A stretch of 33,763 bases of DNA. Source: Fimbriimonadaceae bacterium. Its GTDB lineage: Bacteria; Armatimonadota; Fimbriimonadia; Fimbriimonadales; Fimbriimonadaceae. Position numbers and translations under genes: made by a program. Below, piece after piece: positions 5,377 to 17,557 of this stretch. The notes beneath the pieces were generated by a model. The model was not told the DNA's origin. It saw only the letters and a program-made list of their open reading frames with translations, and did not search any database. The stretch's first letter is position 1. Each line of letters opens with the position of its first letter. The stretch covers positions 1 through 33,763 of the forward strand of contig JBKJIP010000271.1 in the NCBI GenBank assembly GCA_046598515.1, given 5' to 3'.

Positions 5377-5399
5377 GTAGCATGACCGTCCCGGTCATG
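5377..5399 (+). repeat. solo REP element (GTAG + CATGACCG-TCC-CGGTCATG hairpin), probable terminator of the S8 gene
   Basis: Identical to the outer REP of the RAYT-flanking doublets at 14596-14618 and 15303-15325. Perfect 8-bp stem with a 3-nt loop, 3 nt after the TAA stop. Confidence 0.75.
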
Positions 5400-12657: not shown

Positions 12658-14267
12658 TATTGACTTAGACGCGTCTTGGTGTGCGGTAAGTGCCCGAAAA
12701 GTGATTCGCGCATCCCGCTGATGCGAGGACTGACCAGCTCCACGTCACGCTGGAAGTAGATCGGGACCCACACCGCATCGGCGAGGATTAGGTCTTCGGC
12801 CTGCTGATAAAGCTTGGCTCGGGCGTCGTTTTCGGTCTCAGGCATGGCGTCTGCTTGGCGGCAAAGTGCATCAACCTGATCGTTCTTGTAGCCGAAGTGA
12901 TTCTCCGGTCCAAAGCTAGCGAGCATTTGGCTGATGAAGTTCTGGGGGTCGAGATAGTCGGCCGCCCATCGCATGTGGAAGAACGCATTCTCGCCGCGAT
13001 TGTCTCGCTCGAGGTACGCCTTCCATTCCGTCTCGCGAACTTTGACCGTAACGCCGAGCGTGGCTTTGATCTGGCTGGCGACGGACTCGGCTACGCGGGA
13101 AATGTCCTTGTAACCCTGTCGGCAGCGAATCTCGAGCTCGGGCATTCCCTTGCCTCCGGGATAGCCGGCTTCGGCCAGAAGCCTCTTGGCACCTTCCGGA
13201 TCGAAAGGAATCGTCGCAGGCGACTTTTCACGGTTGCCAAAGACTCCGGGAGGAATGATCGTGTGCGCTTCCTGGTTGATGCCGCCCAGGTAGTTGTTGA
13301 CGATCGTCTGTCGATCGATGGCCATCGCGAACGCCTGGCGTACGCGGCGATCGGCGAACGGCTTGTACAGGCCGCTCGGGGCGATACCCACATACCAAAT
13401 CGCGGGACGATTATAGGTCTTGAGCATGGACGCGAACTTCGTGTCCTTCTTCAGGCCGTCGACTTCCTCACGCTGGAGCAGGAGAATATCCAGTTCGCCA
13501 GCCTTGAACTTTGCGAGGCGAGTCGTCGCATCCAGAATGATCGGGCGCTCCATTCCGTCGAGGGAGGGCGCGCCGTCGTGGTAATCCTTGTTCGCTTCGA
13601 GCTTCATGACCTGCTCGGCGATGTACTCTTTCGCTTTGAAGGCACCGGTGCCGATCATGTTGTCGACCTTGGTCATTTCCGTGCCTGCGTTCTGTGCTTC
13701 CTTCGCGATAACAGAGAAGACAGGATAGGTCATCTTGCCGAGGAAGTAGGGACGAGCCTGATCGAGTTCGACTCGCAGGGTGTAGTCGTCCACGGCCTTG
13801 ACGCCGCTGATTTCTTTGGCTTTGCCTTGAACCACGTCCATGACGCCCATGACATCGCTCATGTAAGCCTCGGCCATAGTCGACTGAAGAGCCGGATTCG
13901 CATTGCGATTCCAGGTGTAGACAAAGTCCTCCGCCTTCAGTTCGCGGCCGTTGTGGAACTTGACTCCCTTCTTGATTTTGAAGAGATAGACCTTGCCGTT
14001 CTGCTCGGTCGTCCAGCTTTCGGCGAGAACGCCGACCGGTTGGTTGTCCTCACTCCAACTGATCAGGCCTTCATAGACCTGTTGGATCATATCGATGGTA
14101 TCGCCATCGCGGACCTTTCCAGGATCGAGGCTCGTGGGCTTGTTAGGAATCGCGTACCGGAGGATATTGGACTTCCCCTTGTTCGCCTCCTGAGAGAAAT
14201 TGCCCTTGCCACATCCGGGCAAAACCAGGGCGGCGGCAAGGAATGCCAAGAAAAGAGAGCGCTTCAT
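12657..14267 (-). CDS. ABC transporter substrate-binding lipoprotein, family 5 (peptide/nickel type)
   Basis: 536-aa ORF. Lipobox LVLPGCGKG. Family-5 SBP features along the full length (YEGLISW, FKIKKGVKFHNG, WAADYLDPQNF). Confidence 0.88.
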   Translation of the reverse strand: MKRSLFLAFLAAALVLPGCGKGNFSQEANKGKSNILRYAIPNKPTSLDPGKVRDGDTIDMIQQVYEGLISWSEDNQPVGVLAESWTTEQNGKVYLFKIKKGVKFHNGRELKAEDFVYTWNRNANPALQSTMAEAYMSDVMGVMDVVQGKAKEISGVKAVDDYTLRVELDQARPYFLGKMTYPVFSVIAKEAQNAGTEMTKVDNMIGTGAFKAKEYIAEQVMKLEANKDYHDGAPSLDGMERPIILDATTRLAKFKAGELDILLLQREEVDGLKKDTKFASMLKTYNRPAIWYVGIAPSGLYKPFADRRVRQAFAMAIDRQTIVNNYLGGINQEAHTIIPPGVFGNREKSPATIPFDPEGAKRLLAEAGYPGGKGMPELEIRCRQGYKDISRVAESVASQIKATLGVTVKVRETEWKAYLERDNRGENAFFHMRWAADYLDPQNFISQMLASFGPENHFGYKNDQVDALCRQADAMPETENDARAKLYQQAEDLILADAVWVPIYFQRDVELVSPRISGMRESLFGHLPHTKTRLSQ

Positions 14268-14279
14268 GCTATGCAGAGT

Positions 14280-16562
14280 TTAACATAGCGCGGCGTCACT
14301 TAGAGCCTCAGTTGTCGCATAGTAGTACGGAGTGTGCGATTCGAACTCACCCGCGCACGTGTCGACCATCTTGTAACCGACCGGCTCCTGGCTCGGCGGG
14401 TCCTCAAGAATCCCCTTGATTTTGCGGAGGAACCACTTGTCCACGCGGCTGAGCTTGTGCACTTCTTCAACGCTCCACCCCCGCCGCAACCCCTCGGCGA
14501 TCGCCCATAGGCGCTCGTCGGTGGGGATTTTGATGGCTTTAGCCAAAGCCTCATCCGTAGCAGGAACCTCCCCCGTGGCAGGGGCTTCCCCTTGCGTAGC
14601 ATGACCGTCCCGGTCATGTGTAGTTCGACCGTCCCGGTCGAAAGTCTCGGCAAGCTGCTCTCTCACGTAAGTCCATTCCCAATCCTTGAGATTGGCCTTG
14701 ACTGGATTGTCCAGAGTGTAACGAATGCAGCGGAGATAGCCGCCCTGGTTCCTGATGAGATGATCGTAGTTCTCATCCTGCCAGAAGTCCCCAGAACGAT
14801 TCAGCAGGCGATTGATCTCATGGGCAGTGAACGACTTCCAAGAGTGAAGAATTTTCGGCAAATCGTATTCTGTCGTGGGCGTCACAACCGCATGAACGTG
14901 ATTGGGCATGACGGCGAATGCGTCAAGTCGGTAACGCTCGCCATCAAAGTGCTTCATCGCCTCGGCGACAATCGTAGCCACTCGCGGATCTCGGAGGAAG
15001 CACGCTCCGTGCCCAGCATCCAGGTATTCACCGATCTTATCGGACAGTAGCCTTTCGTGCTGTGCGGCCTGCGCTGGCGTTAAATGTTGCTTGCTCTTGA
15101 GTTCATCCAGACGCCGCCGCTCCTCTCGCCACTCTTCTCTGGTCGCCACCGGGACCGAGTCAGCGAGGCGGAAAGTCACGAAGTAGGAGGCTCCCTCTGA
15201 ATAGACGTGAGGCAGTCTTGCTCCCTTATGGCGATCCAAACCGGCCTCGGGATTCCAAGCGTAGAGGGCTTCTTCGGTTTCGACCGGGACGGTCGAACTA
15301 CTCATGACCGGGACGGTCATGCTACTGGATACGGAGCGGGGGCCGGCGAACTTTTCTAGCCAGAGATCCTTCGTCTTCACTTCTAGACCACGCACTGCTT
15401 TCAACAGCGCCCCCTCGAAAGTCCGGTCGATCGCCATGACCTCACCCGTCGCCTTCATTTGCGTGAACAGCGTCCGGTCGCCGGATGCGAACTTGTCGAA
15501 GGGCCATCGGGGAATCTTCACTACGCAGTAGTCCAAGGCGGGCTCGAAGCAGGCTTTGGTCGTGCCGGTGACCTGATTCTCGATCTCATCGAGCGTCTTC
15601 CCGCTGGCAATTTTCGCGGCGACGCGGGCGATGGGGTAACCGGTCGCCTTGGAAGCCAACGCCGAGGATCGAGACACCCGAGGATTGACCTCGATGATGT
15701 AGTAGTCAAAACTCTCCGGGTTAACCGCGAGCTGCACGTTGCAGCCTCCCTCGATCCCCAGCGCTTGAATGATCTTCAGCGATGCGGTCCGCAGCATGTG
15801 ATATTCGATGTCGCTCAGCGTCTGCGAAGGGGCGACGACGATGGAGTCGCCCGTATGCACGCCCATCGGGTCGAAGTTCTCCATGTTGCAAACCGTAATG
15901 CAGGTTCCCTTCGAGTCACGCATGACCTCATACTCGACTTCTTTCCAGCCCAGCAGACTCCGCTCGATCATGATCTGGGAGCGCAAGGAAAGCTTGAGAC
16001 CGTTGTTGCCGATCTCCCAGAGCTCTTCCGGCGTGTTCGCGATGCCGCCGCCGGTACCGCCGAGCGTATAAGCCGGGCGAACGATGCAGGGATACGGCGC
16101 AGTTTCCAGGAGTGCTTTGAGTTCATCCGGATTCTGGATGATCCAGCTCTCCGGAACGGGCTCGCGGATCTCCCGCATGAGGGCTCGGAACTCGTCTCGA
16201 TCTTCTGCCTTTCGAATGGCGCTGAGGGGTGTGCCCAACACTCGAACGTTGTATTTCTCGATGATTCCGGCGTCTTCGAGTTGAATCGCGAGATTCAAGC
16301 CGGTTTGACCACCAAGAGTGGGCAACAGGGCATCTGGCCGCTCCCGAGCGATTACTCGCTCGCAGAAGTCCACATTCAACGGCTCGATATAGAGCGCATC
16401 CGCCACTCCGGGATCAGTCATGATCGTGGCAGGATTCGAATTGATAAGGACGACTTGGTGCCCCTCTTCTTTTAGGGACTTGCATGCCTGAGTGCCGGCA
16501 TAATCAAATTCGGCCGCTTGCCCGATGACGATTGGGCCGGAGCCGATAACGAGAACTTTCAT
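14280..16562 (-). CDS. carB: carbamoyl-phosphate synthase large subunit, N-terminal half only, carrying an in-frame RAYT transposase insertion (aa ~409-669)
   Basis: [51 protein letters not shown]..., ATP-grasp core, [20 protein letters not shown], then oligomerisation-domain sequence [17 protein letters not shown]...VDKWFL...[18 protein letters not shown]. The ORF stops where full-length CarB would begin its second ATP-grasp half. It is a single uninterrupted 760-aa frame. Confidence 0.85.
14596..14642 (+). repeat. REP doublet (GTAG-CATGACCGTCCCGGTCATG-t-GTAG-TTCGACCGTCCCGGTCGAA)
   Basis: Two perfect hairpins (8-bp stem, 3-nt loop), each preceded by GTAG. Translated within the carB frame as [15 protein letters not shown]. 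Confidence 0.85.
15279..15325 (-). repeat. REP doublet, inverted copy
   Basis: Its reverse complement matches 14596-14642 at 46/47 positions. Translated within the carB frame as [15 protein letters not shown]. Confidence 0.85.
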
Positions 16563-16571
16563 GGTCCAGAG

Positions 16572-16647
16572 TGGTGGGCCCGGTGGGGATCGAACCCACG
16601 ACCATGCGGTTATGAGCCGCGTGCTCTAACCCCTGAGCTACAGGCCC
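16572..16647 (-). tRNA. tRNA with CAT anticodon (elongator Met or lysidine-modified Ile2), CCA encoded
   Basis: Hand-folded 76-nt cloverleaf. Acceptor GGGCCTG/CGGGCCC (one G-U). T8 A9. D-arm GCTC-AGGGGTTA-GAGC. Anticodon arm CGCGG-CTCATAA-CCGCA (one mismatch). T-arm GTGGG-TTCGATC-CCCAC. A73-CCA. G1-C72 excludes initiator tRNA. Confidence 0.85.
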
Positions 16648-16870
16648 GCCTGGAGTCGGATCATACCTGTTATGAACCTAATCGGGAGTTGAGTGGCGTG
16701 ACAGCTACTCTCGGGTTGTCGCGGTACAGACCTCCGCGACCCACAATTGACTTTCTCCTTCCCCCAAGGGTTGTCACCCATTTGAGCGACCCAGCAATTT
16801 GCCTAAGCTGGGACTGAACAAGTAGCGGCAAGACCCGTCTATTCGTACTTCGGAGGTCTAGCTCTTTACG

Positions 16871-17557
16871 ATGAACCTAAAATCCATTTTTGCGGTCGCG
16901 CTATTCTCAGTGGTGGCAATCGCAAGCGCCCAAGGTGGCGGCGGCGGACAGCGCGGCGGAATGCAGCGCATGGGCGGCGATTCGCTCAACGGACTCCTGC
17001 GACGCACGGACGTCCAGGCTGAGCTCAAGCTCACAGATGATCAGAAGACGAAGCTCGTACCGCAGCGCGGTGGCGGTGCAGGTGGAGCAGGCGGCGGCCA
17101 GGGCGGCGGTCAGCGCGGTCAGGGCGGAGCCGGTGGCGGCGGTGGTCAAGGCGGCGGTCAGGCGGTCGACCCGGCAGCCATGCGACAGCGCCAAGCCGAG
17201 CAAGAGAAGCTTGTTTTCGACACGCTCGACGCGACCCAGGGCGCTCGCCTCAAAGGTCTTTATGTTCAGCGCGTTGGTAACCGAGCCGTTCTTAGCGGCG
17301 TGATCGCCAAGGACCTGGAACTCACGGCCGATCAGAACAAGAAGATCGAAGGGCTTCAAGCCAAGCAGCGCGAAGCGATGCAGGCCGTCATGGAAAAGAG
17401 GCGCAACGGTGAAATCGAGCGCGATCAGATCCAAGACATCATGAAGAAGAACAACGACATCTTCAGCGAAGAGCTCGGCAAGATCCTCACCGAGGATCAG
17501 AAGGGCAAGCTGAAAACGATGCGCGGCGCCGACTTCAAGTTCGTCGACGGCAACTAA
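16871..17557 (+). CDS. secreted Gly-rich LTXXQ-motif (Spy/CpxP-like) periplasmic protein, paralog of 10595-11155
   Basis: Signal peptide MNLKSIFAVALFSVVAIASAQ. GGGGGQRGGMQRMGG and a long (G/Q/A)n tract. LTDDQKTKL, LTADQNKKIEGLQ and LTEDQKGKLKTM motifs. Confidence 0.65.
   Translation: MNLKSIFAVALFSVVAIASAQGGGGGQRGGMQRMGGDSLNGLLRRTDVQAELKLTDDQKTKLVPQRGGGAGGAGGGQGGGQRGQGGAGGGGGQGGGQAVDPAAMRQRQAEQEKLVFDTLDATQGARLKGLYVQRVGNRAVLSGVIAKDLELTADQNKKIEGLQAKQREAMQAVMEKRRNGEIERDQIQDIMKKNNDIFSEELGKILTEDQKGKLKTMRGADFKFVDGN

Follow-up and report, generated by a model that had tools for sequence, protein, structure and literature searches.

How a transposase can lie in frame, with no stop codon of its own, in the middle of an essential biosynthetic enzyme is the question raised by a carB gene of a Fimbriimonadaceae bacterium, carried by positions 1 to 33,763 of contig JBKJIP010000271.1 (a stretch called, as a whole, the window hereafter). 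The insert is a REPtron, that is, a repetitive extragenic palindromic (REP)-associated tyrosine transposase (RAYT) together with the REP hairpins that flank it. An initial annotation made from the sequence had proposed three explanations, namely a recent insertion that survives because it keeps the frame and sits in a surface loop, a transposase whose synthesis is tied to translation of the host gene without splicing, and an inactivated carB copy. Our analysis supports the second best, and we consider it likely that an ancestral in-frame insertion of a REPtron in the linker of a split carB N-half, inherited mostly vertically since then, has left a RAYT that is made through carB. We did not find this apparently ancient and conserved arrangement described for this kind of transposase.

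The host gene is a minus-strand open reading frame (ORF) of 760 codons devoid of internal stops in a program-made ORF list. Pfam places CPSase_L_D1 at aa 2–117, CPSase_L_D2 at aa 121–326 and CPSase_L_D3 at aa 676–720, which bears out the initial annotation in that the ORF starts as CarB and ends in the CarB oligomerisation domain. In the alignment with Escherichia coli CarB, residues 3–396 of the window protein correspond to residues 10–405 and residues 673–719 to residues 424–470, and the gap at E. coli residues 405/424 therefore places the insert where the carboxyphosphate domain gives way to the oligomerisation domain, at the very start of the latter, as proposed at the outset. Since the ORF ends at the point where the second ATP-grasp half of full-length CarB begins, it is the N-half of a split carB, in which the pre-ATP-grasp, ATP-grasp and oligomerisation domains are present and conserved under selection. 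The alignment and a gap census indicate that the insert is present neither in full-length CarBs nor in a clean split N-half (P0084), so that the comparison with orthologs envisaged in the initial annotation yields both an empty site and the bounds of the insert (Table 1).

On sequence and modelled structure, the insert is a bona fide RAYT with a predicted Y1 HUH nuclease fold, an HUH motif and a predicted catalytic Tyr. Indeed, Y1_Tnp (PF01797) is recognised at aa 528–596 with 27.6 bits (cut-off 23), and the NCBIfam model REP_Tyr_transpos (NF047646) is matched with an E-value of 1.7e-21, its 76.6 bits being slightly below the cut-off of 80. Homologues of the segment number more than 7000, the best of which are free-standing proteins of 190–250 aa, 45–55% identical and labelled "REP element-mobilizing transposase RayT" by their sources, and in an alignment with 49 free-standing homologues the window RAYT holds all the invariant residues, i.e. 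LPH, NHxH, WK, W..E..D and the Tyr..P of the Y..NP motif. The sole PDB sequence match of the insert is E. coli TnpA-REP (4ER8), in which the Tyr of VDYIYINP, aligned with Tyr615 of the window (IRYTLDNP), is what we take to be the catalytic Tyr115. When the whole protein was modelled with AlphaFold2 (AF2), the RAYT was confident, with a block of predicted local distance difference test (pLDDT) values of about 82–97 across aa 450–640; the CarB part was poor, with an overall predicted template modelling (pTM) score of 0.45, and a PDB structure search with this model returned CarB and ATP-grasp structures only. The RAYT was hence modelled separately (pLDDT 87.9, pTM 0.82), and its best PDB match is again 4ER8 (E-value 1.6e-7, template modelling score 0.66), followed by the IS608, ISDra2 and IS200 transposases. 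The identification of residues ~409–669 as a full HUH/Y1 RAYT is thus upheld, all the motifs then quoted being present. As in the E. coli yafM REPtron (4ER8), a Y1/HUH fold with the HUH motif and a Tyr on the C-terminal helix is bordered by inverted, GTAG-tagged, GC-rich hairpins, and an identical REP is also found elsewhere in the window; unlike TnpA-REP, with which it shares only 17% identity, the window RAYT has a helical insertion of about 60 aa after the first strands, as do free-standing relatives from Planctomycetota and Armatimonadota.

The initial annotation had described the flanks as 47-bp inverted REP doublets identical at 46 of 47 positions. The doublets and their GTAG tags are real, but the arms measure 48 nt, are complementary at 47 of 48 positions with 634 nt between them, and two degenerate units lie outside the 3' doublet. 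Each arm is made of two direct 24-nt units (four in total), in which GTAG is followed by 3 nt and then by a GC-rich 8-bp stem whose loop is 3 nt long. Folded as DNA, the unit hairpins have z scores of -4.8 to -6.5 relative to shuffles, and their core palindrome, GACCGGGACGGTC, is present in five copies in the window, where 0.08 would be expected. Both doublets are read in frame as peptides at the interdomain boundary, in the manner of in-frame intragenic REPs and Rickettsia palindromic elements (RPEs), which agrees with the earlier statement that the hairpins are translated. As predicted structures have pLDDT values below 50 for the two REP-encoded peptides (aa 410–429 and aa 642–664), they are probably flexible linkers, between which the RAYT is modelled as a confident domain.

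Table 1. Coordinates of the carB locus and of its REP elements in the window
Feature	Position	Strand	Basis or remark
Split carB N-half ORF (760 aa) with insert	14280..16562	-	Stop codon 14280-14282; ORF list, Pfam, NCBIfam, E. coli CarB alignment
CarB carboxyphosphate domain (pre-ATP-grasp + ATP-grasp), aa 1-406	15345..16562	-	aa 3-396 = E. coli CarB 10-405
In-frame inserted REPtron, aa 407-669 (GPRSVSS ... GEVPAT), ~263 codons	14556..15344	-	Alignment and gap census
5'-side REP doublet, two 24-nt units (GTAGCATGACCGTCCCGGTCATG, GTAGTTCGACCGTCCCGGTCGAA)	15278..15325	-	Inverted repeat; folds, z ~-6; AF2 pLDDT <50 at aa 410-429
RAYT (TnpA-REP-like Y1/HUH) core, aa 448-632	14667..15221	-	Pfam/NCBIfam, 4ER8 sequence match, invariant columns, AF2
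HUH histidines H555 and H557	14892-14900	-	Motif NHVH (N-H555-V-H557)
Predicted catalytic Tyr615	14718-14720	-	Sequence alignment to 4ER8
3'-side REP doublet, inverted copy of the 5' doublet	14596..14643	+	Inverted repeat; folds; AF2 pLDDT <50 at aa 642-664
Pair of degenerate, older GT[AG]G REP units lying outside the young 3' doublet	14556..14594	+	Junction comparison
CarB oligomerisation domain (shortened), aa 670-760	14283..14555	-	PF02787; aligns to E. coli 424-470 and 494-549
Solitary intergenic REP	5377..5399	+	23 nt identical to the outer unit of the doublets

The RAYT lies on the strand and in the frame of carB and, as noticed from the start, has no stop codon of its own, the only ATGs nearby (15320 and 15305) being both within REP hairpins. 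Neither a conserved start nor promoter-like or terminator-like signals were found for it, so that it does not constitute a gene by itself. While free-standing relatives begin with M-(6–20 aa)-KRQGAxLPHW, the embedded copies retain ..KRQGAYLPHW without the Met. A stand-alone intergenic REPtron is different in both respects, since the window RAYT lacks its own start, stop and promoter, making up codons 407–669 of an essential enzyme, and since in the window the REPs themselves are translated. For want of these signals the RAYT would be made only by translating carB through it, and because no stop follows it, even an internal start would give a RAYT fused to the oligomerisation domain.

The same architecture is found in numerous relatives. 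When the whole protein was compared with the database (90%-identity clusters), 42 of the 120 best matches, the window's own protein counted, carry the insert at the same site and in the same frame, which represents 41 further clusters besides that of the window. All 42 are split N-halves of 701–1015 aa with an insert of 235–417 aa, at a place where full-length CarBs of the same family have a linker of 23–26 aa. They are drawn from NCBI, JGI, ENA and Logan assemblies, and those with source names are Fimbriimonadaceae or Armatimonadota. Furthermore, the downstream synteny (SBP_bac_5, AraC-type regulator, ABC ATPase) is shared between the window and the loci of P0002, P0035, P0007 and P0091, and synteny with the window is common to L001–L005. 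Because the same insertion occurs in 41 further clusters and synonymous sites are saturated between lineages, the insertion is old, not recent, and would date back to an ancestor of a Fimbriimonadaceae (Armatimonadota) lineage. The first of the three initial explanations is thus right as to the preserved frame and the tolerant linker and wrong as to a recent event.

In all eight relatives whose junctions were examined (L001, L003, L119, L120, L121, L122, the last through its protein P0036, and L142, plus L123, in which the host is Sua5), REPs lie in inverted orientation on both sides of the RAYT, and their sequence is lineage-specific in each. Compensatory stem changes keep the hairpins paired in four of the eight (L001, L003, L119 and L120), as illustrated by L119, where one flank has CATGGGCGTCCCGCCCATG and the opposite flank CACGGGCGTCCCGCCCGTG. 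A 5' GT[AG]G tag marks the outer units and its codon phase is constant, cGT/AGC at the left junction and ..GCTAC/G GAT at the right. Such patterns amount to selection that acts on the nucleic acid itself inside a protein-coding region, which is what one would expect of hairpins that continue to be recognised. The near identity of the window repeats had been taken as the sign of a young element; it does not date the insertion, because older degenerate REPs lie outside the doublets and because relatives have other REP sequences at the same place, and it more likely results from REP turnover or homogenisation at a long-occupied site.

Both parts of the protein are under purifying selection. The carboxyphosphate domains of the window and of P0002 are 94% identical with a ratio of nonsynonymous to synonymous substitution rates (dN/dS) of 0.027, and dN/dS of the CarB N-half (CarB-N) is 0.013–0.05 overall; the corresponding ratio of proportions of differences (pN/pS) is 0.15–0.23 for the RAYT core. 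In the pair L119/L120, CarB-N has a dN/dS of 0.013 and the RAYT core a pN of 0.18 and a pS of 0.78; in the pair L121/L142, the values are 0.025 for CarB-N and 0.125 and 0.82 for the RAYT core, whose amino acid identity (81%) exceeds that of the CarB oligomerisation domain (72%) and of the REP-encoded linkers (53–68%). Selection on CarB and RAYT rules out a pseudogene, and the third initial explanation, an inactivated carB, is contradicted by the CarB-N ratios as well as by the C-half gene located 1.5–2.2 kb downstream on the same strand in the insert-bearing relatives L121 and L122. Signs of purifying selection and of vertical inheritance have also been reported for RAYT groups 2 and 3 (PMC5581495).

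As to inheritance, CarB-N and RAYT identities co-vary across the 42 proteins (Mantel r 0.29, a value reached by 13 of 2000 permutations), and the nearest neighbours by CarB and by RAYT agree within well-sampled clades; RAYT identity plateaus near 45% when CarB-N identity falls below about 93%. Re-scored jointly with the best 120 of the more than 7000 free-standing homologues, the embedded RAYTs occupy ranks 2 and 3 and eight of the top 15 places with respect to the window RAYT. Given the abundance of free-standing homologues, this enrichment among the nearest neighbours favours a common ancestry of the embedded copies. Mean identity is 45% to free-standing and 44% to embedded RAYTs, i.e. equal on average, and what bears on single origin versus replacement is the co-divergence at short range and this enrichment.

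The lineages also differ in the state of the insert. All catalytic and family-invariant motifs are retained in 36 of the 42 carriers, the window included. In a sub-clade composed of P0061, P0065, P0067, P0072, P0085 and P0109, an insert of about 255 aa is kept in frame with LPHW, YDH, the catalytic Tyr and NP lost, so that it is a decayed, catalytically dead RAYT domain retained inside CarB. In-frame loss of the RAYT is seen in three split N-halves: the site is clean in P0084, a single 30-nt REP read as GTHGQDAHAT is left in P0091 (L005), and in P0035 (L002) the RAYT is deleted and remnants of both REP arms persist, resembling a derivative of the REPIN (paired REPs) or MITE (miniature transposable element with inverted repeats) type. 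The degenerate outer unit read as GEAPAT is common to the window and to this RAYT-less L002, and the partial protein P0097 bears a REP-like scar at the insert site.

These data lead us to propose the following scenario. A REPtron would have entered, in frame, the linker between the carboxyphosphate and oligomerisation domains in an ancestor of a Fimbriimonadaceae lineage and would have been inherited mostly vertically afterwards. The RAYT would be synthesised only by translation of carB through it, hence at the expression level of carB; it would form a folded domain suspended from two disordered linkers that the REPs encode, in a CarB-N that would still function with a C-half encoded by another gene. 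In this tethered state the RAYT may still cut and join single-stranded GTAG-REP DNA and so maintain the REP population of the genome. As carB is essential, loss of the insert by frameshift or nonsense mutation would be forbidden, leaving in-frame deletion or slow missense decay as the only ways out, and this fits the outcomes observed, which are in-frame deletions and missense decay only.

Several points weigh against this scenario. We infer translation through the insert, CarB activity with the insert in place and activity of the tethered RAYT from the sequence. Dispersal of the REP in the genome of the window amounts to a single extra copy in 33 kb; a weak Shine-Dalgarno-like GAGG followed by TTG can be read before the RAYT core, in the window alone; and no C-half of carB is present in the 33-kb window, where tblastn with full-length CarB matched the N-half only. 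A second carB or a second RAYT may exist in this organism beyond those 33 kb. The minimum-energy fold of the mRNA (14556–15350, minus strand) pairs the REP doublets as a 47-bp long-range duplex that encloses the RAYT-coding part (z -9 relative to shuffles), and such a duplex might be cleaved as an RNase III substrate or act as a barrier to ribosomes. Finally, P0002 is the closest insert-bearing relative by its CarB-N (94%), but its RAYT shares only 45% identity with the one in the window and its REP type is another, and the RAYT pS of about 0.8 stands above the CarB-N pS of 0.4–0.7, so that replacement of the cassette in some lineages is possible.

These last two points also speak for an alternative in which the site was re-invaded repeatedly or its cassette replaced, the REPs serving as landing pad or the conserved carB flanks permitting homologous exchange; different cassettes would have been installed at this one site in different lineages in a homing-like way, and the near-perfect doublets of the window would reflect a recent replacement. 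It also accounts for the RAYT of the window being nearest to those of P0020 and P0009, whose CarBs are more distant, for the older degenerate REP units outside the young doublet, and for the same 20–23-nt REP in distant phyla. We nonetheless regard it as unlikely, given the concordance of RAYT and CarB neighbours within well-sampled clades, the significant Mantel test and a codon phase of the outer GT[AG]G that is identical in all lineages. Moreover, pS of the CarB oligomerisation domain (0.68–0.72) is nearly at the RAYT level, so that strong codon constraint on CarB-N can explain the gap, and the Kuenenia RAYT that is flanked by the window-type REP is 42% similar, below other embedded RAYTs. 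The insert might otherwise be a trapped relic, tolerated in frame in a surface linker, inactive and conserved merely to fold harmlessly, which is what the six proteins of the P0061 sub-clade and the in-frame deletions of the RAYT in several lineages would suggest; this is quite improbable, given that 36 of 42 lineages, the window among them, keep the catalytic and invariant residues despite saturated synonymous divergence, that pN/pS is 0.15–0.23 and the RAYT core is even better conserved than the oligomerisation domain in one pair, and that compensatory changes preserve REP pairing, a behaviour not predicted by a constraint on protein folding only.

Could the insert instead be removed before the protein is made, the working enzyme being insert-free? 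Inverted GT[AG]G tags do bound it, clean and REP-only sites exist in relatives, and both excision of single-stranded DNA at the GTAG...CTAC ends and RNA processing or bypass via the 47-bp duplex can be imagined, the latter in line with the RNA fold described above. We hold this very improbable: every one of the 42 lineages, those with a decayed RAYT included, keeps the insert open and in frame, which removal would not require; no intron or ribozyme family was detected, nor any intein motif or Hint domain; and we know of no precedent for a bypass of more than 700 nt. That this carB is a pseudogene or a redundant copy, or that assembly or annotation produced an artefact, has a negligible probability, although the C-half is missing from the window and a passage of Quentin et al. 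was counted in its favour. The architecture recurs in the assembly sources listed above, CarB-N is under strong constraint, C-half genes are nearby in L121 and L122, and stand-alone C-halves of 542–612 aa are common in the family, that of Fimbriimonas ginsengisoli included, for which no N-half was found within 10 kb.

Split carB genes are known, for example, in Aquifex aeolicus and Methanocaldococcus jannaschii, and the ancestral insertion that we favour would have taken place in a gene of the same design, with an N-half that stops after the oligomerisation domain; in relatives of the window, a separate C-half of 540–610 aa (second ATP-grasp and MGS-like domains) is encoded elsewhere or a few genes away. 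To our knowledge, in contrast to the carB of the window, none of the known split genes has a mobile-element domain inside. Two unrelated genes separate the carB halves in both L121 and L122, and their identities differ between the lineages: TPM-phosphatase genes in L121 (4959–6400), a 5'-nucleotidase and an aspartic protease in L122 (7803–10017).

The arrangement calls to mind inteins with homing endonucleases, which likewise have an enzyme derived from a selfish element encoded in the reading frame of an essential gene, at a position that is conserved, are expressed only via translation of the host gene and are guarded against disruptive loss by the essentiality of the host. The window insert differs in having no Hint domain, no conserved Cys/Ser...His-Asn junctions and no sign of removal from the protein, and in occupying an interdomain linker, not an active-site motif. 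An intein as such was rejected: there is no intein or Hint match in Pfam, and the junctions (..EKFA/GPRS.. and ..VPAT/DEAL..) vary among relatives and are not conserved splice residues. IStrons, which combine an IS200/IS605-type element with a group I intron, are also Y1-transposase elements residing in genes without killing them; they splice from RNA, whereas no ribozyme was found here and conservation of the frame indicates read-through. An IStron or self-splicing intron was rejected in turn, a Rfam E-value scan of 13500–17500 giving a tRNA only, plus one sub-threshold match on the opposite strand at the same tRNA site.

REPtrons and RAYTs, GTAG REPs and vertical inheritance are already known (PMC3733652, PMC5581495, PMC6006769), and RAYTs have been described as single-copy, vertically inherited and "domesticated", how they are expressed and why they persist being open questions (PMC5581495). 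In-frame intragenic palindromic repeats are known as well, as Rickettsia RPEs and as intragenic GTAG/CGTC REPs (Di Nocera et al. 2013, PMC3733652). Like the carB hairpins, these are units in frame in genes and translated as short peptides, and the single 30-nt REP of L005 at the carB site is of the same kind; those described are short repeats alone (20–82 aa; PMC3733652), whereas carB holds a whole conserved autonomous unit with its transposase. Full-text searches of the literature, which does hold in-frame REPs and discarded "gene fusions", retrieved no account of a RAYT lying within carB or within any essential enzyme, in agreement with the initial annotation, which knew of none.

carB does not seem to be the only host, since the best homologues of the RAYT include further fusions with host genes. 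In P0169 and four more clusters, a REP-coded linker and a RAYT come after a complete AdoMet decarboxylase, P0207 has YacG followed by a RAYT, and in P0200 a RAYT precedes a Sua5 C-terminal domain in the same ORF. At L123 (3253–4942), the order YrdC domain, REP, RAYT, REP, Sua5_C corresponds to a REPtron in the interdomain linker of Sua5, on a contig that has frameshifts. REP-encoded linkers stand at the junctions in all three fusions that were read (L123/P0216, P0169 and P0207), and many "free" RAYT ORFs extend upstream through REP arrays that are open in frame. It is conceivable, albeit rather unlikely, that this RAYT family is habitually a translational passenger of housekeeping genes and that the REP-bounded cassette is exchanged or re-installed at the same codon between lineages, possibly leaving by excision at its GTAG...CTAC ends or undergoing processing at the 47-bp duplex, in an intein-like "homing" that would use single-stranded DNA hairpins and not protein splicing.

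Under the ancestral-insertion scenario, the problem of RAYT expression would be met in an undescribed way, the transposase having no gene of its own and being made as part of an essential biosynthetic enzyme, in an arrangement that has outlasted long divergence. The catalytically intact, decayed, REP-only and clean-site lineages form a natural series for the dependence of REPs on the RAYT, and the locus illustrates that CarB can tolerate a domain of 260 aa where its A and oligomerisation domains meet. Given the parallel fusions with Sua5, AdoMet decarboxylase and YacG, the long "fusion" RAYTs that earlier surveys discarded may be biologically real.

The REP of the window has a wide distribution. 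It is found on at least four contigs of one Fimbriimonadaceae metagenome-assembled genome (MAG), including a head-to-head pair and a tandem array, as well as in many other phyla in a scan of a genome collection and in 17 metagenome stretches, and it flanks RAYT fragments in Kuenenia. This occurrence across phyla suggests that this REP/RAYT system spreads horizontally or is under strong constraint. A tandem array on a Fimbriimonadaceae MAG contig (L084, 4097–4260) is of the bacterial interspersed mosaic element (BIME) type, with three copies at a 56-nt period in which the window-type REP alternates with a second hairpin. Unrelated genomes that belong to several phyla and differ in G+C content carry the exact 23-nt REP (GTAGCATGACCGTCCCGGTCATG) and its 20-nt core (L125–L141, notably assembly JAESFG01; L006–L118), and in at least three JAESFG01 copies (L129, L132 and L140) the window-type REP stands head-to-head with a REP of another sequence type.

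The oligomerisation domain of the window protein is shortened, its matches being limited to E. coli residues 424–470 and 494–549; that of P0003, P0009 and P0046 has about 50–170 extra, highly variable residues, which implies that this domain tolerates large length changes in the family. Upstream, a tRNA-Met (CAT) gene (16572–16647, minus strand) ends 10 nt before the start codon of carB-N, with which it may be co-transcribed or to which it may lend its promoter. Farther on, a 228-aa ORF of the plus strand (16871–17557) contains long Gly-rich low-complexity runs (GGGGGQRGG...) and coincides with a local G+C peak of 0.67–0.72.

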